Source: Elusimicrobia bacterium HGW-Elusimicrobia-3
GTDB taxonomy: Bacteria; Elusimicrobiota; Elusimicrobia; Elusimicrobiales; UBA9959
Assembly (NCBI GenBank): GCA_002840355.1
Contig: PHAL01000006.1
Span: 3,303 to 67,302 of the forward strand
Direction of reading: 5' to 3'
DNA: 64,000 nucleotides
Shown: positions 3,082 through 25,919 of the stretch, in pieces
Position numbering within the stretch: the stretch's first letter is position 1
How the letters are laid out: every line of letters begins with the position of its first letter
The notes under the pieces: model-generated
Database searches by the model: none
What the model was told of the DNA's origin: nothing
What the model saw: only the letters and a program-made list of their open reading frames with translations
Made by a program: the position numbers and the translations under genes

Positions 3082-4428
3082 ATGAAGCTTATACTTTCAA
3101 CCCTTATAATACTGTCCGCGCCGGCCCTGGCGCTGGCACAGGCGGAGCTCTCCCTGGAGGAAGCCGTAAACCGGGCGCTCAAGACCGATAATATAGTTCA
3201 GACCGAGGCCGACCGCGTGAGCGGGGCCCGGGCCGGCCTGCGTCAGGCCCGGATGAGCCGCCTGGGCGGCCTGAAGCTTAAAGGCATGTACACGGACGGC
3301 AATGACCCCGTTTACGCTTTCGCCACCGCCATGAAGCAGGGCACCTTCGGCATGGCCTCCCTGGCCACCATAAACGATCCCGACCCGGCCCGCAACTATA
3401 TGGCGGGCATAGAGGCCGGAATACCCCTTTTCACCGGTTTCGCCCTGTCCAACGCGGCCAAGATGGGCAATCTGGGGGTAGAAGCGGCCAGCAGCGGCTA
3501 TGAGCGGGCCCGGGCCGGCATAACCTTCAAGACCACCTACCAGTGGCTGACCGTGGCCCTGCGCGAGCGCCTGGCCGGCCTGGCGGCCGACAGCATAAAG
3601 GCGGCCGAAGAGGAGCTGAAGACGGCCCAGATGTTGAAGGACAAGGGCATGGTGCTGGGCTCGGACTATTTCGGCGCCGAGGCCATACTTTCAACCCTTA
3701 AGGGTTACCAGATCAATTGGGACAGCGCCCTGAGGCTGGAGCGCGAGAAGCTCGGCATAGCCGTGGGCCTGCCCGGCGGCGCCGGCGCGGCCGGCGCGCT
3801 GATAGACCCCGGTTACGGCGTCCTGGACCGCGGCGCCCTGGCCTCGGCCGCCTCCGGCCGCCGCGATGTGCGCGCGCTGGAAAAGCTGGCCGAGATCTCC
3901 AAGGTATCGGTTTCGATGCAGAAGAATTCGGTGCTGCCGGTGGTGGAAGCCTTCGGCGCCTGGGAGACCAATTCCGAAAGCCTGTCCGAATTCAGGGACA
4001 ACCGGCTGCTGGGCATACGCCTGACCATGCCGATAGGCGACCCAGCCTGGTTCGCCAGGCGCGACGGGGCCAAGGCCGAGGCCGCCATGGCGGACGGCCG
4101 GGTACAGGAAGCGCGCCGCCAGGCCTCTATAGAGCTGGCCGAGGCCCTCAGCAACTACGCCGCGGCCAGGGACGGCCTGCCGGTGGCGCAGGAGACCGTG
4201 GACAAGGCCAGGAAATCGCTGGAGCTGTTCCGCCCCCTCTACCGCCAGGGCCGCCAGAGCGTGCTGGAGGTGCTGCGCGCCCAGGCCTCGCTGCTGCAGG
4301 CCGAGGCCGGCTACTATGAGACCCTTTATAAGCTGAACCTCTACCGGGCCCAGGCCCTGCTGGCCTCCGAAACCCTGGACGCCGCCGCGGTTAAAGAACT
4401 GTCTGACAAATTGGGGGCAGAGAATTGA
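3082..4428 (+). CDS. TolC-family outer-membrane efflux protein
   Basis: 448 aa with signal peptide MKLILSTLIILSAPALALAQA. Two-repeat coiled-coil/beta-barrel OEP-like sequence (LSLEEAVNRAL..., LYRQGRQSVLEVLRAQ...). AAGGAG RBS. Confidence 0.85.
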   Translation: MKLILSTLIILSAPALALAQAELSLEEAVNRALKTDNIVQTEADRVSGARAGLRQARMSRLGGLKLKGMYTDGNDPVYAFATAMKQGTFGMASLATINDPDPARNYMAGIEAGIPLFTGFALSNAAKMGNLGVEAASSGYERARAGITFKTTYQWLTVALRERLAGLAADSIKAAEEELKTAQMLKDKGMVLGSDYFGAEAILSTLKGYQINWDSALRLEREKLGIAVGLPGGAGAAGALIDPGYGVLDRGALASAASGRRDVRALEKLAEISKVSVSMQKNSVLPVVEAFGAWETNSESLSEFRDNRLLGIRLTMPIGDPAWFARRDGAKAEAAMADGRVQEARRQASIELAEALSNYAAARDGLPVAQETVDKARKSLELFRPLYRQGRQSVLEVLRAQASLLQAEAGYYETLYKLNLYRAQALLASETLDAAAVKELSDKLGAEN

Positions 4429-4446
4429 AGACTGAAGCCGGCAGGC

Positions 4447-4574
4447 GGTCCGGCCAGGGCACGCCTTCTCCGGGTACGTTCGGCCACACCGTGGCCTCAC
4501 TCTTTCGCTTCGGTTCGGCGCTGCGCAAGCCTCACCTACGCGAGGCCCCTACGAAGGCATACCCTGTCCTGACC
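4447..4574. repeat. ~128 bp intergenic element with imperfect terminal inverted repeats (copy B; reverse orientation relative to copy A at 25061..25191)
   Basis: Ends ggtccggccagggcacgcc / ggcataccctgtcctgacc pair at 15 of 19 positions. The core shares blocks with the reverse complement of 25061..25191: ggccacaccgtggcc, tcactc, tcggcgct[g/a]cgcaagcctc and gagg(g)ccc. Confidence 0.6.
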
Positions 4575-4625
4575 GAGAAGAGCTGCTCAGAATATATTCA
4601 AAGCGGTAAGTTCTAGGAGTCCACA

Positions 4626-7600
4626 ATGCAGAACACTGAACACAAATACGGGATGGCGGGCAAAATGGCGGAGAGCTTTATCGGCTCGCGCCTGACGCCC
4701 ATACTGATAATCACCTTCATACTCCTGGGCGTCTTCTCCACGTTCAAGCTGCCGCGCGAAGAAGAGCCGCAGATCAACGTGCCCATGTTCGATATCATGG
4801 TGCCGTTCTACGGCGCCGCGCCCAACGAGATAGAGAAGCACCTGGTAGAGGTGGGCGAGCGCAAGCTCTGGGAGATCCCCGGCGTGGAATACATCTATTC
4901 CATAGCGCAGCCCAACTTCGCCATGTTCACCGTGCGCTTCAAGGTGGGCACCGCCCCCGAAGCCGCGGCCAATCTGGTCTACACCAAGACGCTCGACAAC
5001 AAGGATATCTTCCCGCGCGGCTCGGGCGAGCCGCTGATCAAATACCGCGCCATCGACGACGTGCCGGTGCTGGCCCTCACGCTGTGGGGCGAGGGCAAGG
5101 ACGGCTATGCCCTGCGGCGGGCCGCCGCGCGCATACAGACCGAGATCAACTCCGTCTCCAACGTCTCCGAGACGCGCATAATAGGCGGCCACAAGCGCCA
5201 GTTCATCGTGCACTTCGACCCGGCCTCCATAGCCCGCCACCGCCTGACGCCGCCCATGCTGGCCGGCATCATCAAGATGTCCAACGCCACGCTGCCGGCC
5301 GGCCACTACAACAAGGGCGACACCCGCCTGCTGGCCGAGACCGACGCCTTCATCCGCAGCGCCGACGACCTGCGCAACATCGTGGTGGGCGTCTACGACG
5401 GGCGGCCCGTGAAGCTCTCCGAGGTGGCCAAGATCACGGACGGCCCCGACGAGGAGGAGCGCTCCGTCACCATGCTGCAGGGCCCGGCCTCGGCCGCGAA
5501 GGCCGCCGCCGCCTCGCCCGCCGTCACCCTCTCCGTGGCCAAGCGCCGCGGCGCCAACGCCACCGAGGTCTCGCGCGAGGTCCTGGCCAAGGTGGAATCG
5601 ATGAAGGGCCGCGAGATCCCCGACGGCATCAGCGTCACCGTCACGCGCAACTACGGCGAGACGGCCAAGGCCAAGAGCGACGAGCTGATCTACCACATGC
5701 TGCTGGCCACGCTCTCCGTCACCCTGCTGATAGCGCTGACCCTGGGCCTGCGCGAGGCGGCCGTGGTGCTGGTGGCCATCCCCGTCACGCTGGCGCTGAC
5801 CATGCTGGTCTATTATCTCTACGGCTATACCCTCAACCGCATCACCCTGTTCGCCCTGATCTTCTCCATCGGCATCTTGGTCGACGACGCCATCGTGGTG
5901 GTGGAGAATATCAACCGCCACTGCGTGCTCAACAGGAAGAATTCCCTGTACCGCAATATCCTCAACGCCGTGGACGAAGTGGGCAACCCGACGATACTAG
6001 CCACCTGGACGGTCATCGCCTCCATCCTGCCGATGGCCTTCGTCAGCGGCATGATGGGCCCGTACATGCGCCCCATCCCCATAGGCGCTTCGGTGGCCAT
6101 GCTGTTCTCGCTGGGGGTGGCCTTCGCCTTCGCGCCCTGGCTGTACGCCCGCGTGGTGGAGAAGTGGCCGGTCAAGCATTGCCATAACGAGCGCGAGGGC
6201 TTCCTGGACCGGATGTACCGCGGCCTGATGAAGAAGCTCATCTACACGCCGGCCAACGGCAAGAAATTCCTGTGGTTCACCACCGGGCTGCTGGCGGTGG
6301 TGCTGGCCATGGTGGCCTTCAGGCTGGTCATTTTCAAGACCCTGCCCTTCGACAACAAGAACGAGTTCCAGGTGATCATCAATATGCCCGAGAGCTCTTC
6401 GCTGCAGCGCACCGAGCGCGCCGCCGGCGAAATGGCCGCCTATCTGGCCGGGGTGCCAGAGGTGCGCGACCTGCAGGTGTACGCCGGCGCCAGCGCACCG
6501 TACAACTTCAACGGCCTTGTGCGGCATTATTTCCTGCGCCGCGAGCCCTACCAGGCCGACATACAGGTGAACCTCTCCGACAAGCACGACCGCAAGCGCC
6601 AGAGCCACGACATAGCCGTGGCCGTGCGCCCGCCGCTCAAGGCCATCGCCGACAAGTACGGCGCCAGGCTGCAGGTGGCCGAGGTGCCGCCGGGCCCGCC
6701 CGTGATGGCCACCCTGCTGGTGGAGGTCTTCGACCCCAACCCCAAGAACCAGCGCGCGCTGGCCGAGCAGATAAAGAACATACTCCGGAACACCGAGGGG
6801 ATAGTCGACGTCGACTCCTACATCCCCGAGGACCAGCCCATCACCCGGCTGCTGGTGGACCGCCAGAAGGCCACCCTTAACGGCGTGGCGGCCGCCGACA
6901 TCGTGCAGACCGCGGCCCTCTCCCTCAACGGCGCCGATATAGACTCGGCCCACGTGGACGACGAGAACGAGGCCGTGGACATACGCCTGCGCCTCTCGCC
7001 GGAGAAGCGCCGCGAGCTGAACACGCTCAAGGAGATCAAGTTCTTCTCGCCCAACGGCACGGCCATCCCCATGGCCAGCTTCGTGCGGGCCGAGGCCGGC
7101 CTGGAGAACCGGCCCATCTACCGCAAGAACCTGCAGCGCGTGGCCTACGTCACCGCCGACATAGCCGGCGGCACCGAGAGCCCGGTCTACGCCGTGCTGG
7201 ACCTGAAGAAGAAGATAGACGAACTCTCCCGCGCCCGCGGGGCCGAGGTGAAGCAGTACTTCACCCGCCAGCCCGTCAGCAATTCCGAGACGGCCATCAA
7301 GTGGGACGGCGAGTGGCATATCACCTACGAGGTGTTCCGGGACCTGGGCCTGGCCTTCGCGATGGTGCTGGTGCTCATCTACATCCTCGTCGTGGCCTGG
7401 TTCGAGGACTTCCTGACGCCGTTCATCATCATGGCCGCCATACCGATGGCGCTGATAGGCATCATCCCGGCCCACTGGGGCATGGGGGCCTTCTTCACCG
7501 CCACGTCCATGATAGGCTTCATAGCCTCGGCGGGCATCGTGGTGCGCAACTCCATCATCCTCGTCGACTTCATCAACCTGAAGGTGCGCGAGGGCATGGA

Positions 7601-7880
7601 ACTCAAGGAAGCCGTGATAGAGGCCGGCGTGGTGAGGTTCAGGCCGATGCTGCTGACCGCGCTGGCGGTCATAGTGGGCGCCGGGGTCATACTCTTCGAC
7701 CCCATCTTCCAGGGCCTGGCCATCTCGCTGATAGCCGGCCAGATAGCCGCCACCCTGCTCAGCCGCGTAGCCGTGCCGGTGCTCTACTACCTGGCCTTCA
7801 AGGACAAGGAATACAAATTAAAGCCCGCCGCGCCCGCGCCCGAACTGCGCGAGGACCTGCTCGGCGCCACCGGAGAATAA
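4626..7880 (+). CDS. RND efflux transporter permease (AcrB/CzcA superfamily)
   Basis: 1084 aa. The N-terminus is typical of RND permeases (AESFIGSRLTPILIITFILLGVFS..LPREEEPQI). 12-TM architecture with two large periplasmic loops. AGGAG RBS. Confidence 0.9.
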   Translation: MQNTEHKYGMAGKMAESFIGSRLTPILIITFILLGVFSTFKLPREEEPQINVPMFDIMVPFYGAAPNEIEKHLVEVGERKLWEIPGVEYIYSIAQPNFAMFTVRFKVGTAPEAAANLVYTKTLDNKDIFPRGSGEPLIKYRAIDDVPVLALTLWGEGKDGYALRRAAARIQTEINSVSNVSETRIIGGHKRQFIVHFDPASIARHRLTPPMLAGIIKMSNATLPAGHYNKGDTRLLAETDAFIRSADDLRNIVVGVYDGRPVKLSEVAKITDGPDEEERSVTMLQGPASAAKAAAASPAVTLSVAKRRGANATEVSREVLAKVESMKGREIPDGISVTVTRNYGETAKAKSDELIYHMLLATLSVTLLIALTLGLREAAVVLVAIPVTLALTMLVYYLYGYTLNRITLFALIFSIGILVDDAIVVVENINRHCVLNRKNSLYRNILNAVDEVGNPTILATWTVIASILPMAFVSGMMGPYMRPIPIGASVAMLFSLGVAFAFAPWLYARVVEKWPVKHCHNEREGFLDRMYRGLMKKLIYTPANGKKFLWFTTGLLAVVLAMVAFRLVIFKTLPFDNKNEFQVIINMPESSSLQRTERAAGEMAAYLAGVPEVRDLQVYAGASAPYNFNGLVRHYFLRREPYQADIQVNLSDKHDRKRQSHDIAVAVRPPLKAIADKYGARLQVAEVPPGPPVMATLLVEVFDPNPKNQRALAEQIKNILRNTEGIVDVDSYIPEDQPITRLLVDRQKATLNGVAAADIVQTAALSLNGADIDSAHVDDENEAVDIRLRLSPEKRRELNTLKEIKFFSPNGTAIPMASFVRAEAGLENRPIYRKNLQRVAYVTADIAGGTESPVYAVLDLKKKIDELSRARGAEVKQYFTRQPVSNSETAIKWDGEWHITYEVFRDLGLAFAMVLVLIYILVVAWFEDFLTPFIIMAAIPMALIGIIPAHWGMGAFFTATSMIGFIASAGIVVRNSIILVDFINLKVREGMELKEAVIEAGVVRFRPMLLTALAVIVGAGVILFDPIFQGLAISLIAGQIAATLLSRVAVPVLYYLAFKDKEYKLKPAAPAPELREDLLGATGE

Positions 7881-21565: not shown

Positions 21566-23359
21566 TTATTCCTTGGCGATGGCGTCCACCATCGCGTCGA
21601 ACTGGTCCAGCGTCCAACCGGCCACGTTGATGGCCCGCACGGGGCAGACCGCCACGCAGGCGCCGCAGCCTTTGCACAGCGCCGGGTTCACCACGGCCAC
21701 CTTCTTGCCGTTATGCTCGCCCATCATCAGGGCGCCGTCGTAGGAGCACTCGGGCGGGCACAGGCCGCAGCCGGTGCACTTGTGCTCGTCGACCACGGCG
21801 ACGAAAGGCTCGAGCGGGATATCCGGCTCGGCCAGCAGGATAGCGGCCTTGGCGGCCGCGGTGCCGGCGGCGGCCATGGCCTCGGTGACGTCCATCGGGT
21901 ACTGGGCGGTGCCGGCCACGAAGATGCCGGAGTTGGCCAGTTCCACCGGCCGCAGTTTTAAGTGCACTTCCTGCAGGAAACGGTCCGCGCTCGACGGCAG
22001 CTTCAGCTGGGATTTGATCAGGGAGATGTCGGCCGGCATCATGCCGGTGACCAGCACTACCAGGTCGGCCTTTACCTCCAGCTCTTCGCCCCAGGTCAGC
22101 ACGTCCTTCACCTTAACGGTATGGCCGGTGCGGTCGGAAGCGACTACGGGCTGGTCGGCCTCGTTGTGGCGCATGAACAGCACGCCGTCCTTGGAGGCTT
22201 TGTCGTAATACTCCTCATGCTGCATGCCGTAGGTGCGTATGTCGCGGTAAATATCGTAGACCCGCACGCCGGGATATTTGTCCTTCAACTGGTTGACCGT
22301 GTGCAGGGCGGCGGTGCAGCAGACGCGCGAGCAATAGTCGTTGATCTTGCCGTCGGCCTGGGGCTTGTGCACCCCTTCCACCTGGCGCGAGCCCACGCAA
22401 TGTATCAGGGCCAGGCTCTTTATCTCCTTGCCGGCCAGCGCCAGCCGGCCCGCCGGGGAATTCTTCATCAGCGCTATGAACTCGGGCAGCGTGACCACGT
22501 TGGCGTCCTCGCCGTAACCGAACTCGCCTTTCGCGGGTTTGTAATGCTCGTAGCCCGTGGCCATCACGATGGCGCCGGCTTTCACCTGTTCGGATCTGCC
22601 GTCGGCTTTCTTGAAATTGATCTTAAAGTTGCCCACGAAGCCGCTGACGAAGTCTATGTCGACGGCGGTATGCACGGTGATCCGGCTGTCGGCGCGCACC
22701 AGCGCCTCCAGCTTGCCGGCCACGGCGGCGCCCTCTTCGCCCGACGGGTATAGCCGGCCGAGTTCCAGCAGTTTGCCGCCCAGCGCCGGACCCTTCTCTA
22801 TGATGACGGCCTCGAGCCCTTTGCCCGCGGCCGACAGCGCCGCGCGCATGCCGGCCGCGCCGCCGCCTATCACGGCCACGCGCTGCTCGGCCGCCACGCG
22901 GATGGCGTTGAGCGCGTCCTTGCGCAGCACCTTCTCCACGCCGGCCTGCGCCAGCTTGATGGCCTTGGCGGTGGCGCCGGCCTTGTCGAACTTGTGCACC
23001 CAGCTGGCCTGCTCGCGGATATTGATATGCTCGTGCAGGTAGGGGTTCACGCCGGCGCGCTGCAGTACGTTGCGGAAGGTGAGTTCGTGCAGGCTGGGCG
23101 AGCAGGCCGCCACCACGGTGCGGTTGACGCCCAGGTTCTTTATGTCCTCGGCTATCAGGTCCTGCCCGTTGGAGGAGCACATGAAGGCATACTCGCGGGC
23201 GACCGCCACGCCGGGATACCGGGCCAGCGCCGCGGCCACCGCTTTCACGTCGATGATGTCGGAGATGTTGCCGCCGCAGTGGCAGACGTACACCCCGACC
23301 TTCGGCTCCTGCCGGAAATTATCCTTGGCGGCTTCGTCCCGTGTTTTTTCGTCCATCAC
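21566..23359 (-). CDS. HdrA/QmoB-like FAD and Fe-S flavoprotein (HdrA N-terminal Cys domain + TrxR-like FAD domain + C-terminal 2x[4Fe-4S] ferredoxin domain)
   Basis: VGVYVCHCGGNISDIIDV...FMCSSNGQ...VVAACSP (HdrA N-domain), GGGAAGMRAAL dinucleotide fold, CVGSR...YCSRVCC, and CTGCGLCPPEC / CKGCGACVAVCP. Confidence 0.85.
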   Translation of the reverse strand: MMDEKTRDEAAKDNFRQEPKVGVYVCHCGGNISDIIDVKAVAAALARYPGVAVAREYAFMCSSNGQDLIAEDIKNLGVNRTVVAACSPSLHELTFRNVLQRAGVNPYLHEHINIREQASWVHKFDKAGATAKAIKLAQAGVEKVLRKDALNAIRVAAEQRVAVIGGGAAGMRAALSAAGKGLEAVIIEKGPALGGKLLELGRLYPSGEEGAAVAGKLEALVRADSRITVHTAVDIDFVSGFVGNFKINFKKADGRSEQVKAGAIVMATGYEHYKPAKGEFGYGEDANVVTLPEFIALMKNSPAGRLALAGKEIKSLALIHCVGSRQVEGVHKPQADGKINDYCSRVCCTAALHTVNQLKDKYPGVRVYDIYRDIRTYGMQHEEYYDKASKDGVLFMRHNEADQPVVASDRTGHTVKVKDVLTWGEELEVKADLVVLVTGMMPADISLIKSQLKLPSSADRFLQEVHLKLRPVELANSGIFVAGTAQYPMDVTEAMAAAGTAAAKAAILLAEPDIPLEPFVAVVDEHKCTGCGLCPPECSYDGALMMGEHNGKKVAVVNPALCKGCGACVAVCPVRAINVAGWTLDQFDAMVDAIAKE

Positions 23360-24645
23360 AGTTTCCTCATATAGCTGGCGGCTTCCATCGCGGCCGAGCC
23401 GGCGTCCACCACCGAGTCGGGAATGTCGCGCGGCCCCTTGACCACGCCCGCGGCGAACACGCCGGCCCCGGCCGTGACGGCCGAAGACACCATCTCGTCG
23501 GAAAGCTTCACGAAACCATAGTCGTTGTTCTCCGCGCCGAGGCCGAAAGCGGCCGCGTCATGGCCGGGCACCAGGCCCTGCGACAGCACCACCAGCTCAT
23601 GCTGCACCTCGGCGGGGGCGGAATCCCCCTCCTGCCGCTCTATGCGCAGTATTGGGTTATGCTTCTCGTCCTCGGTGATGCGGGCCACCTTGGCTTTCAC
23701 GAAGTTGATGCCCATGGCCCGGGCGTTGTTGTAGAACTGCTCGTAGCCCTTGCCGAAGGCGCGGATGTCCATGTAGTAAATGGTGATGTCGGCTATCGGC
23801 AGCGACCCGGAGAGCAAAATGGCCTGCTTGATGGCGTACATGCAGCAGACGCGGCTGCAGTAGGGCACGCCTATGCTCTTGTCTCGCGAGCCGGCGCACT
23901 GCACGTAGGCGATGGAGCCGGGCACCATGCCGTCGGAGGGCCGCAGCACGCGGCCGTAGGGGCCGTGCGGCGCCAGCAGGCGCTCGGCGGCCATCGGAGA
24001 GATCACATTGGGCAGTTTGCCCAGGCCGTACTGTTTCTTGGCCGTCATCGGCGTGGTTTCGTAGCCGGTGGCGAGTATTACGGACTTGGCCTTTATCTCC
24101 ACGGGGGCCGGCTCCTGCAGGAACTCTATGCAGTCCTTGGGGCAGGCGCGCGCGCAAGCGCCGCAGCGTATGCAATGCTCGGGGTGCATGACGGGGTACT
24201 GCGGTATCGCGTTGGTAAAGGGTATCGAGATGGTCTTCTTGGCGCCCATGCCCTGCTCGTATTCGTCGGGCAGGTAGACGGGGCAGACCTCTTCGCAGCG
24301 CTTGCACGAGATGCATTCCTTCTCGTCGATATAGCGCGGTTTGCGGGTCACGGAAGCGGTGAAGGATTTGCCCTCGCGCTTTATGGCGTCCACGGTGCTG
24401 TATGTAAGGGTAGTAATGCGCGGGTGATGCGAGACCGAGGCCATGCGCGGGGTGGTGATGCAGCTGGCGCAATCCAGGGTGGGGAACACCTTGCTCAGCG
24501 AGATCATCTTGCCGCCGATGCTGGGCGCTTTCTCGACTATCGCCACGGAGTAACCCTGGTCGGCCAGGTCCAGCGCGCTCTGCAGCCCGGCGATGCCCGA
24601 GCCCACCACCAGCGTGTCCACTTCTATCTTTTCAATGTCGCTCAT
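23356..24645 (-). CDS. HdrA/QmoA-like FAD flavoprotein with inserted 2x[4Fe-4S] ferredoxin domain
   Basis: VVGSGIAGLQSALDLA...VEKAPSIGGKM...LDCASCI (HdrA signature), inserted CISCKRCEEVCP / CIRCGACARACP, and CAGSRD...YCSRVCC. Confidence 0.85.
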   Translation of the reverse strand: MSDIEKIEVDTLVVGSGIAGLQSALDLADQGYSVAIVEKAPSIGGKMISLSKVFPTLDCASCITTPRMASVSHHPRITTLTYSTVDAIKREGKSFTASVTRKPRYIDEKECISCKRCEEVCPVYLPDEYEQGMGAKKTISIPFTNAIPQYPVMHPEHCIRCGACARACPKDCIEFLQEPAPVEIKAKSVILATGYETTPMTAKKQYGLGKLPNVISPMAAERLLAPHGPYGRVLRPSDGMVPGSIAYVQCAGSRDKSIGVPYCSRVCCMYAIKQAILLSGSLPIADITIYYMDIRAFGKGYEQFYNNARAMGINFVKAKVARITEDEKHNPILRIERQEGDSAPAEVQHELVVLSQGLVPGHDAAAFGLGAENNDYGFVKLSDEMVSSAVTAGAGVFAAGVVKGPRDIPDSVVDAGSAAMEAASYMRKL

Positions 24646-25019
24646 ACGGCGGCCACCGCCTTTTCCATTTCGGAGATTTCCTTCAGGAAGGCCGCGCGGC
24701 AGACCGTGCAGATAGTGGTCAGCTTGAGCCGGTTGGCGGCTATGCCCTTGGCCCGCATCTGCTCGTAAACCCGGGCCACGCGTTTGGAGAGCCGCTCGTA
24801 GGCGCCCTCATAAGGACAATCCGAGCCCGAGGACATGATGATGATGCCCCCGATGCCCCTGTCGAAAGCCCGCAGGTAGAAATCCTCCGGGAACATCACC
24901 GGGTCCGGCACGCGTATGATATAAGTGTTGGCGCTGTACCCCATCCGGGCCTGCCCCACCGCGTCCGCCCCCGGATAAGAGCTGTGGTTAGTAGTAATAA
25001 TCAGTATTTTTTTTGACAT
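24642..25019 (-). CDS. MvhD/FlpD-like (hydrogenase delta-subunit-like) protein with degenerate cluster-binding cysteines
   Basis: The family-like backbone is kept (KILIITTNHSSYPGADAVG...IIRVP...FYLRAFDRGIGGIIIMSSGSDCPYEGAYE..RV...M...GI...RLKL), but most positions usually occupied by Cys are T/H/S/P. Confidence 0.6.
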   Translation of the reverse strand: MSKKILIITTNHSSYPGADAVGQARMGYSANTYIIRVPDPVMFPEDFYLRAFDRGIGGIIIMSSGSDCPYEGAYERLSKRVARVYEQMRAKGIAANRLKLTTICTVCRAAFLKEISEMEKAVAAV

Positions 25020-25060
25020 GCTAAAAAGTACCGTTCAAGAAAGACTTGCCGTCTCTCGGA

Positions 25061-25191
25061 GGTGAGGCAGGGTCATGGGTTCCGAGGGCCCTCACGGAAG
25101 GCGAGGCTTGCGTAGCGCCGAGCCTGAGTGAGGAGGGGCGGCCACGGTGTGGCCGACCCCGTGCCCGAGTGTCCCATGACCCTGCCTCACC
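25061..25191. repeat. 131 bp intergenic element with perfect 19 bp terminal inverted repeats (copy A)
   Basis: ggtgaggcagggtcatggg (25061-25079) and cccatgaccctgcctcacc (25173-25191) are exact reverse complements. An internal palindrome ggccacggtgtggcc is present. Homologous in reverse orientation to 4447..4574. Confidence 0.65.
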
Positions 25192-25227
25192 GACTCCGCA
25201 TCTCGCGGATCAAGATAGTGGTTCGAC

Positions 25228-25473
25228 TTACTTCTTACGGGTCACAAACAGGGAATCATATCCGTCGCGTTCGAGCACGCCCATGTACTCGTGGCCGGAC
25301 TTGCCGCACCACGCGGGGATGTCCTCGCGGCTGCCCTTGTCGCCGGACTGTATCTCCAGCACGCCGCCCACCGGCACGCCGGCTATCCCCTTCTTCGCTT
25401 CTAGCAGCGGGCCGGGGCAGGCCATCGAGCGGGCATCCACCACTTTCGCGGGTTTTATCTGGCTAAGGTCCAT
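25228..25473 (-). CDS. TusA/SirA-family sulfurtransferase
   Basis: CPxP active-site motif (ARSMACPGPLLEAKK) and a two-layer alpha/beta sandwich-size protein (81 aa). Start at MDLSQIK has a GGAGGA RBS. Confidence 0.8.
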   Translation of the reverse strand: MDLSQIKPAKVVDARSMACPGPLLEAKKGIAGVPVGGVLEIQSGDKGSREDIPAWCGKSGHEYMGVLERDGYDSLFVTRKK

Positions 25474-25490
25474 ATATCCTCCGTTAACTC

Positions 25491-25793
25491 TCAAAGGTCG
25501 AAATTAGGGCAATAGAGCTTCTTGATCCTGGAGACAAGCTCCTCCAGGTTGGGGTCTTTGATGCTATAGAAGATGCGGTTGCCGTCGCGGCGCTTCTGTA
25601 TAAGGCCGCGGTCGGCAAGGACGCGCAGGTGCTGCGAGATGTTCCCCTTGGTCGTGCCGAGCTTTTCGATAACCTCGTGCACGAACATTTCCCTCTTCAA
25701 CAGCATACAAATTATCATAAGCCGGGAGGGATGCGCAATACAGGACAGCATACCCGCTATCCCCTCCGCCTTGGCCTGCATCGTCTTGTTCAT
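25491..25793 (-). CDS. ArsR/SmtB-family transcriptional regulator (candidate thiol/persulfide-responsive type)
   Basis: wHTH region HPSRLMIICMLLKREMFVHEVIEKLGTTKGNISQHLRVLADRGLIQKRRDGNRIFYSI. Cys in alpha2 (IICML) and near the C-terminus (LYCPN). Start is uncertain: 25793, 25781 or the ORF-track 25835. Confidence 0.75.
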   Translation of the reverse strand: MNKTMQAKAEGIAGMLSCIAHPSRLMIICMLLKREMFVHEVIEKLGTTKGNISQHLRVLADRGLIQKRRDGNRIFYSIKDPNLEELVSRIKKLYCPNFDL

Positions 25794-25797
25794 GTAT

Positions 25798-25829
25798 AGT
25801 AGTTTAGCAGGTACTAAACTAGTTGTCAA
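25798..25829 (-). promoter_or_regulatory. candidate promoter (TTGACA-17-TAAACT) overlapped by an inverted repeat operator (TAGTTTAG-6-CTAAACTA)
   Basis: Minus strand reads TTGACA actagtttagtacctgc TAAACT actatac ATG. The 8 bp perfect inverted repeat (10 bp with one mismatch) fills the spacer and -10 region. Confidence 0.4.
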
Positions 25830-25919
25830 GCCCATGGCTGTGCCGTATCAAGCGCTATGCGCGACAGGCGGCTAGCTGCCAGCCGGGGCCGGGGGCCCCG
25901 GGGCGGGATATTTTGGGAT

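Follow-up and report, generated by a model that had tools for sequence, protein, structure and literature searches.

A family of interspersed palindromic repeats with conserved hairpin loops in GC-rich Elusimicrobia

Two palindromic elements in the window and their neighboring genes

We describe a family of palindromic noncoding repeats through two copies in a 64,000-nucleotide stretch of Elusimicrobia bacterium HGW-Elusimicrobia-3 (GenBank assembly GCA_002840355.1, contig PHAL01000006.1, positions 3,303 to 67,302 of the forward strand). This whole stretch is called the window here, and coordinates without a locus label refer to it. One copy (copy B) lies between tusA and an flpD/mvhD-like gene, the other (copy A) between an OEP/TolC-like and an AcrB-like gene. 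A first-pass annotation of the sequence had reported copy B as a 131-bp element with perfect 19-bp terminal inverted repeats and copy A as a second copy aligning with its reverse complement, and both descriptions stand: the arms of copy B at 25061-25079 (GGTGAGGCAGGGTCATGGG) and 25173-25191 are exact reverse complements (19 nt, 100%) with 93 nt between them, the core palindrome GGCCACGGTGTGGCC lies inside the element at 25140-25154, and its reverse complement aligns with 4447-4574 at 75% identity over 108 nt (blastn, E 2.5e-14). The blocks said to be common to the two copies are all present (TCGGCCACACCGTGGCC, TCGGCGCT[A/G]CGCAAGCCTC, and GAGG(G)CCC), and Pfam agrees with the calls for the genes on either side of copy B. 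Only the extent had to be redrawn; with basal pairs included, the elements are slightly longer than first given. We assign an element to the strand that reads GCCACACCGTGGC...GGCGCTACGCAAGCC (the S strand). The features of both copies and the genes that flank them are as follows, with the helices named P1, P1b, P2, and P3.

25057-25198, minus strand: copy B, whole element, subfamily F3, between tusA and the flpD/mvhD-like gene (from arm match, folds, and covariance model)
25061-25079, no strand: copy B, first arm of the outer stem P1, 19 perfect pairs with 25173-25191
25173-25191, no strand: copy B, second arm of P1, pairing with 25061-25079
25057-25060 with 25195-25198, no strand: copy B, basal extension of P1, with a 3-nt bulge at 25192-25194
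25135-25160, no strand: copy B, hairpin P2, with a 3-nt loop closed by the core GGCCAC/GTGGCC (25140-25154) and a GGGG/CCCC extension
25090-25133, no strand: copy B, hairpin P3, an irregular helix with a conserved 9-nt loop at 25108-25116 (GCTACGCAA on the S strand)
25086-25089 with 25163-25166, no strand: copy B, short helix P1b closing the three-way junction (from folds and pair counts)
4446-4575, plus strand: copy A, whole element, subfamily F2, between the OEP/TolC-like and AcrB-like genes
4446-4468, plus strand: copy A, 5' arm of the outer stem P1, imperfectly paired with 4553-4575, with several C.A and other mismatches
4553-4575, plus strand: copy A, 3' arm of P1, pairing with 4446-4468
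4482-4496, plus strand: copy A, hairpin P2 (GGCCAC-ACC-GTGGCC), from the fold
4504-4544, plus strand: copy A, hairpin P3, conserved loop GCTGCGCAA at 4520-4528
25228-25494, minus strand: tusA (TusA, PF01206, by Pfam), flanking copy B
24642-25019, minus strand: flpD/mvhD-like gene (FlpD/MvhD, PF02662, by Pfam), flanking copy B and followed by two HdrA-like genes
3082-4428, plus strand: OEP/TolC-like gene (by Pfam), flanking copy A
4626-7880, plus strand: AcrB-like gene (by Pfam), flanking copy A

On the S strand, the P2 loop context of copy B is CAC-ACC-GTG, which is conserved, and a 2x2 pyrimidine internal loop in its P3 corresponds to tandem G.A on the opposite strand. Copy B folds with z = -7.4 to -8.3 relative to dinucleotide shuffles; the mRNA-sense strand of copy A folds barely beyond shuffled sequence (RNA z = -2.0, DNA z = -0.4). 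A covariance model of the family gives copy B 146.6 bits (25048-25203, minus strand) and copy A 133.5 bits (4435-4587, plus strand). No third copy is present in the window, either by an nhmmer profile built from the two copies, which matches these alone, or by the covariance model run without filters, whose next match reaches 11 bits (E 0.35), and a fuzzy motif search of the window (9-mers, three mismatches) returned noise only.

Both copies are noncoding, as first proposed. Mechanical open reading frames (ORFs) span them (63 aa at 4425-4616, plus strand, over copy A; 153 aa at 25046-25507, plus strand, over copy B) and carry a risk of miscalling; they are not genes, because members of the family are separated by 1-nt indels (a P3 loop of 9 versus 10 nt). 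Neither a U-tract or promoter consensus nor a terminator-like site coincides with either window copy, and an intrinsic (Rho-independent) terminator is excluded at both, as no U-tract follows the hairpin. At two other loci (L054 and L073; L numbers label the loci examined), a separate canonical terminator lies downstream of the element. A weak sigma-70-like match at 4569-4598 on the plus strand (CTGACC, 18-nt spacer, TATATT, 9/12) overlaps the 3' arm of copy A directly upstream of the AcrB-like gene and is probably due to chance. Copy B sits in a minus-strand cluster (21566-25835) of an arsR-like regulator, tusA, the flpD/mvhD-like gene, and two hdrA-like flavoprotein/ferredoxin genes; this cluster is a sulfur-relay or heterodisulfide-reductase-like module, and its synteny is kept across the Elusimicrobia relatives L090-L095.

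A three-way junction with conserved loops and covarying stems

All copies of the family share one fold: each is an imperfect palindrome in which P1, P1b, P2, and P3 make a three-way junction. The outer stem P1 has ~19-30 pairs with small internal loops and is often lengthened by basal GG/CC pairs, the boundary motif of the element being GG(T)TC|GG...CC|TCC(A). P1b, the short helix that shuts the junction, is 99% paired and shows AU/GC covariation; P2 is a hairpin with a stem of 6-7 bp, and P3 is an irregular hairpin of ~15 bp with 2x2 internal loops and a terminal loop of 9-10 nt. The P2 loop context CACACCGTG is found in 102/107 copies and the P3 loop GCU(N1-2)YGCAA in 104/107, and P2 (GGCCACACCGTGGCC) and the P3 tip (GGCGCTACGCAAGCC) bear no relation to each other. 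The stems of P2 and of the P3 tip covary beside these fixed loops, as is seen in copies found without the exact search pattern given below, whose stem variants are GGCCAC/GTGGCC, GCGCAC/GTGCGC, and CGCCAC/GTGGCG in P2, and GGC/GCC, CGC/GCG, and CCGG/CCGG at the P3 tip.

P1 is the least sequence-conserved part of the element, yet it is complementary within each copy. Its inner portion defines three subfamilies: F1 (GCAAAAC/GTTTTGC), F2 (CCGGGTAC), and F3 (CGGGCAC). A copy's own arms pair at -55.4 kcal/mol, as against -36.2 for arms swapped between copies, and own-arm pairing beats 10 random partners in 66/83 copies. We rejected the idea that the outer stem derives from the target, the core having landed in a hairpin already present at the site, because P1 within a subfamily has a degenerate consensus (e.g., GGGCCNGNCGA|GGGTATGGG).

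The first-pass annotation had judged the stem differences between the two window copies not to be compensatory, and here it was mistaken: nine stem changes between copies A and B are both-sided, and no pair is broken. Covariation is strong throughout the family. When a MAFFT alignment of 34 F2 and F3 copies is scored against a hand-drawn structure of 38 pairs, 90.7% of cells are paired, compared with 79.3% in shuffles (0/500 reach the observed value) and 30-49% in slid registers; 23 pairs have changed on both sides versus 13, with a covariation score of 0.295 versus 0.110. A second alignment, covering all subfamilies, was fitted to the covariance model, so that its counts lean towards the structure: 91.6% of its cells are paired versus 68.9% in shuffles, 33/38 pairs have changed on both sides, and the covariation score is 0.479 versus 0.142. 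In this alignment all of the P1 pairs (19/19) vary on both sides and covary, with up to six pair types. A best-partner column scan of a mixed-subfamily MAFFT alignment was too noisy, and we therefore relied on per-subfamily folds, the hand-drawn structure, and the covariance model.

Some copies carry an optional mini-hairpin of ~25 nt (AAGAAA GTGGAGC-TTC-GCTCCAC, or GTGTCGCTTCGCTCCAC), which, depending on the copy, lies in either strand of P3 (5' or 3') or between P1b and P2. This is an expansion segment of the element or else a miniature element nested in it.

L090:1309-1486; L062:7067-7220; L007:6092-6245; L072:229-378; L052:583-762; L081:1815-1967; L018:2590-2742; L074:7604-7756: copies with the mini-hairpin

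In its three-way junction, conserved core, and variable closing stem the element resembles small ribozymes and some protein-binding RNAs, and the copies could on that ground be read as genes of a trans-acting small RNA or a self-cleaving ribozyme. We regard this as extremely improbable. The sequence matches no annotated RNA family: over the whole window no Rfam 15 model reaches its gathering score, and around both copies, on either strand and up to E = 10, the only hits are chance-level miRNA models, with no ribozyme or small RNA among them, which excludes a known ribozyme. Conservation does not extend into the flanks, and the copies thus have no promoter or terminator in common; orientation is random, as described below; and conservation resides in the hairpin loops and stems, not in the junction nucleotides.

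Distribution, location, and turnover of the copies

We joined the two most conserved blocks into a two-block pattern (GCCACACCGTGGC, an 11-41-nt gap, and GGCGCTNCGCAAGCC), which has no match in 100 shuffles of the window and 86 exact copies in a species-representative genome collection. A chance local duplication, raised at first as the alternative to a repeat family, is thereby set aside: the carriers are at least 21 species-level Elusimicrobia metagenome-assembled genomes (MAGs) with 5-11 exact copies per genome, and nearly all matches fall in Elusimicrobia MAGs of ~56-64% G+C. A sequence profile adds 20 copies beyond the exact-pattern set, and the covariance model finds ~110 distinct copies across the 724 kb retrieved. 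The one match outside the phylum (L008; LBTN01000004.1, labeled Candidatus Magasanikbacteria) is on a contig whose G+C is ~0.30 in the first 1.5 kb and then ~0.60; this contig is probably chimeric or misbinned, and we reject presence outside Elusimicrobia, as this is the sole such match. IMG/VR viral contigs contain no copies, and a viral origin was rejected on this count. The family probably consists of lineage-specific, noncoding, nonautonomous interspersed repeats of ~130-150 bp found in one GC-rich Elusimicrobia clade. At each of the two window sites, a contig assembled independently from another sample stops within the conserved core (positions 25116 and 4490; contigs L002, Logan SRR3546449_71614, and L098, SRR3546449_34291), and these ends are repeat-induced assembly breaks, as expected of a multicopy repeat.

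Genes around the copies were called with a codon-statistics caller that reproduces the real genes of the window. The window copies had been placed in intra-operon spacers, and both do have codirectional flanks, but this does not hold for the family at large: 20 of the 89 exact copies lie in convergent spacers and only one in a divergent spacer (p = 2e-5), the two kinds being equally frequent in the examined loci (45 each). Few of the 89 overlap a called gene, and copies usually begin 3-60 nt past the upstream stop codon. Copies are almost confined to the 3' regions of genes, in either orientation. In codirectional spacers 25 copies have one orientation and 17 the other (p = 0.28), so that an orientation tied to transcription, as for a cis-acting RNA, is rejected, and the mRNA-sense placement of both window copies is a coincidence and not a rule. 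The 533 neighboring proteins, when clustered, comprise only housekeeping families with no common function.

A classical miniature inverted-repeat transposable element (MITE), that is, an internally deleted insertion sequence whose terminal inverted repeats are recognized by a DDE transposase, would agree with the size of ~130 bp, the terminal inverted repeat in each copy, the many intergenic copies, their presence or absence at orthologous sites, and the assemblies that break inside the element. This reading is largely refuted by the variable termini: the terminal arms are copy-specific and the least conserved part, and what is conserved is the interior with its structured loops. A target-site duplication is absent in 59/82 copies, and 22/82 share only a TC dinucleotide, which is better read as part of the basal internal loop. 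Neither a parent insertion sequence with the same termini nor a transposase was found beside the ~110 copies or in 737 kb of loci (loci, not whole genomes). A MITE is accordingly highly unlikely.

The two strands of the element differ. Mismatches on the reference strand are of the A.C type in 70 cases and of the G.U type in 24, and the complement of the GCCAC...GCAAGCC strand is richer in G.U pairs, contains tandem G.A loops, and folds at lower energies in all subfamilies. We have withdrawn the reading of that complement as the functional single strand. The asymmetry is no evidence for a functional strand, because the excess comes from mismatches shared at fixed stem positions; those private to one or two copies are symmetric (10 G.U versus 9 A.C). 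A change in transcription direction does not reverse the asymmetry (Fisher p = 0.76), which argues against selection on mRNA as the dominant force. The orientation of copies is balanced with respect to local GC skew (43 versus 45), in a test that is weak with 8-kb flanks, and is not biased by the coding strand either; replication-coupled insertion was rejected on these grounds.

Gain and loss are visible at orthologous sites. The tusA-flpD spacer contains the element in the window and at L090, L092, L005, and L082 (FlpD 85-98% identical) and lacks it at L091, L093, L094, and L095, where the spacers measure 61, 69, 49, and 31 nt. At the filled sites the outer stem is altered yet paired (window CAGGGTCATGGG/CCCATGACCCTG, L090 GAGGGGCATGGG/CCCATACCCCTC), and the core of the L092 copy has diverged. 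The 31-nt spacer of the distant relative L095 (L095:1470-1500, corresponding to window 25020-25227) has a terminator-like hairpin, GGGGCGG-GAAA-CCGCCCC-TTTTT, a hint that a hairpin placed here has a function in the arsR-tusA-flpD-hdrA-like cluster. The spacer next to lpxC-fabZ-lpxA is occupied by F1 in two MAGs and by F2 in another two, and a similar hot spot lies near glnS-nadK-recN (L007, L031, L055, and L072). In the MAG STC_50, a 340-bp composite occurs in at least 10 copies at 88-95% identity; it joins an F1 element to an unrelated GC-rich palindrome of ~190 nt (GGGCGGGGAGGGGTTCCTGGCGAC...GCCAGGGGCCCCTCCCCGCCC). These composites are a recent burst, and at L056 an inverted F2 element replaces their second module.

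L012:207-531; L043:5939-6069; L068:1791-1921; L078:6434-6564: copies in the spacer next to lpxC-fabZ-lpxA
L009:3105-3450; L027; L033; L035; L039; L050; L068; L076; L079; L080: loci of the 340-bp composite in STC_50

Where two family members are adjacent, they are arranged tail-to-tail in 9/9 pairs, with linkers of 36-59 nt; such pairs often mix subfamilies and have linker and flank motifs in common, and the covariance model reveals a tenth. Gain and loss, dimers, and mosaics are the behavior of mosaic repeats resembling repetitive extragenic palindromic (REP) sequences and bacterial interspersed mosaic elements (BIMEs).

The main rival explanation is a cis-acting structured RNA of the host that selection on the transcript maintains, with the copies as paralogous regulatory sites: an mRNA 3'-end stabilizer, an intercistronic processing site (with the 19-30-bp stem as, e.g., an RNase III target), or a factor-dependent attenuator. 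It would account for the strong covariation, including the compensated changes at the orthologous tusA-flpD site, for the invariant loops beside covarying stems, and for the position of copies 3-60 nt after stop codons and out of divergent promoter regions, and it draws further support from the simple hairpin at the same place in L095 and from very stable folds (copy B z = -7.8 to -8.3). On balance we think it rather unlikely, as orientation is random with respect to transcription, the mismatch pattern is indifferent to transcription direction, copy A in mRNA sense folds little better than shuffled sequence, four relatives do without the element at the orthologous site, the neighboring genes lack a common function, no U-tract follows the hairpin, and the mosaics, fixed dimers, and STC_50 burst fit repeats and not regulatory sites.

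Complementary arms may also arise mutationally. Replication template switching makes and maintains perfect hairpins and yields apparent compensatory changes in one step (PMC8794818), and if it kept the arms of these quasi-palindromes complementary, their covariation would be silent on function. In line with this documented process, the 19-bp stem of copy B is flawless whereas the orthologous copies at tusA-flpD carry mismatches, and private mismatches have no strand bias. What template switching leaves unexplained are the invariant loops beside flipping stems, the fixed three-way architecture across three subfamilies, and the recurrent non-Watson-Crick positions at fixed places in the stems. 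As an explanation of the family we find it quite improbable; it is a mechanism of stem maintenance, not an identity for the element, and is compatible with a mobile repeat.

Proposed mode of spread and comparison with known repeats

The first-pass annotation had named a MITE-like element, a REP/BIME-like element, and a structured RNA as candidates, with no choice made among them, and these identities fare differently: REP/BIME-like behavior is seen in the 3'-end location, both orientations, dimers, and mosaics, and the classical MITE founders on its variable termini and the lack of target-site duplications. We consider that the element is probably a structured nonautonomous repeat of the REP/BIME/REPIN kind, spreading as DNA via a folded hairpin intermediate. 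The mechanism is proposed by analogy with systems of REP/REPINs and REP-associated tyrosine transposases (RAYTs), where compensatory changes are common too (PMC3116915). By this analogy, the element would spread, or would once have spread, through a folded single-stranded hairpin that a putative trans-acting protein recognizes at the two conserved loops, as RAYT enzymes recognize REP/REPINs. Insertions would last only where promoters stay undisturbed, and the copies, cotranscribed with the upstream gene, would be tolerated or used as very stable 3'-end or intercistronic hairpins, which when transcribed may protect the upstream mRNA or damp read-through. Copy B would then fill a tusA-flpD spacer in which a distant relative has a plain terminator-like hairpin, and replication template switching may help to keep the arms complementary (PMC8794818).

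Several points weigh against this explanation. The 533 neighboring proteins include no recurrent transposase, in agreement with the early remark that none lies nearby, and a six-frame screen of the 737 kb for an HuH-Y1 motif found none, a weak result that concerns loci and not whole genomes. RAYT-type partner genes are usually single-copy per genome, so that with 737 kb covered the negative for a partner enzyme is weak evidence; the gene bracketed by two copies at L029 encodes a radical-SAM enzyme, and an HuH phylogenomics paper does not cover Elusimicrobia. Neither excision nor insertion was seen at the read level. The folded strand cannot be named, as strand preference vanishes for private mismatches, and replication-coupled single-strand insertion of the IS200/IS605 kind is unsupported by the GC-skew counts; on these two observations, a strand-specific DNA intermediate cannot be claimed. 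Pairing has been kept at one orthologous site through vertical descent, which a purely selfish element would not obviously need and which points to host-level selection or a mutational mechanism.

We also considered that the family could represent a new class of structured mobile or protein-bound element, namely a three-way-junction module of single-stranded DNA or RNA that would be read through its two invariant loops by a putative dedicated Elusimicrobia protein (a non-RAYT nuclease/recombinase or an RNA-binding factor), with the closing stem free to vary and the tail-to-tail dimer as the functional or replicative unit. This we hold to be unlikely.

Full-text literature on Elusimicrobia repeats or RNA motifs yielded nothing relevant, and the family is previously undescribed; it belongs to a known class, the interspersed extragenic palindromic repeats, and its conservation pattern is unusual. 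Such repeats are well studied in Proteobacteria; Elusimicrobia are known mostly from metagenomes, and to our knowledge interspersed palindromic repeats are essentially unknown in this phylum. The family inverts the usual pattern of conservation, its interior and two loops being conserved and its closing stem hypervariable yet always paired, and it thereby offers a natural data set on how hairpins are maintained, be it by template switching or by selection, acting either on a transposition intermediate or on the transcript. In practical terms, it breaks metagenome assemblies at predictable places, may mislead gene callers (as with the spurious 63- and 153-aa ORFs), and can serve to mark this Elusimicrobia lineage. 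The invariant loops are a direct handle for finding a partner protein, should there be one.

Among known systems, integron attC sites are excluded, since the ends lack RYYYAAC/GTTRRRY boxes and the copies are dispersed among housekeeping genes in both orientations. ERIC/IRU of Enterobacteria and Vibrio and the Correia/NEMIS elements of Neisseria are imperfect palindromes of ~100-155 bp, intergenic and in either orientation, that are transcribed with their neighbors, and their long RNA hairpins can affect mRNA processing and stability. Some variants carry internal insertions at defined places, to which the optional mini-hairpin here is comparable. ERIC and Correia copies have conserved terminal inverted repeats and TA target duplications, and interiors without a three-way junction and invariant loops; the Elusimicrobia family, by contrast, has that junction with its loops, and neither conserved terminal repeats nor a target duplication. 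TRIT of Mycobacterium tuberculosis, a single short sequence-conserved 3'-end hairpin in a GC-rich genome without a canonical U-tract, is alike in being a hairpin repeated many times downstream of genes without such a tract, and unlike our family with its three helices, hypervariable covarying stems, dimers, and mosaics.

REPINs are nonautonomous REP doublets of ~100 nt that form hairpins, in which compensatory changes on the two hairpin sides are common and which, by an alternative proposal, would adopt a "clover" fold containing two small hairpins (Bertels and Rainey 2011, PMC3116915). The present family is likewise a hairpin-forming nonautonomous repeat with compensatory changes, and it shares with REPINs a long vertical persistence with occasional bursts (PMC3116915). 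The ends of a REPIN, however, are inverted copies of one REP around a variable spacer, whereas here variation lies in the ends and conservation in the interior; P2 and P3 are mutually unrelated, so that the element is no doublet, and its tail-to-tail dimers join two whole elements, often of different subfamilies. A strict REPIN is therefore excluded by the variable ends and unrelated inner hairpins.

The REP/BIME repeats of Enterobacteria and Pseudomonas differ from the family in several respects. A REP is a single hairpin of 20-40 nt and the unit here has 120-150 nt and three helices; there is no GTAG-type tetranucleotide at the hairpin foot, the boundary motif described above standing in its place, and an E. 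coli-type REP is excluded on these counts. Conservation here falls on the two hairpin loops, with a hypervariable main stem, and no RAYT gene was found in the 737 kb of loci, a search that is not genome-wide. In other respects the likeness is close: both are extragenic, multicopy, GC-rich imperfect palindromes that occupy convergent or codirectional spacers and almost never divergent ones, lie in 3' regions in either orientation and are cotranscribed there, and occur singly or in clusters in which neighbors alternate in orientation and subtypes are combined through characteristic linkers.

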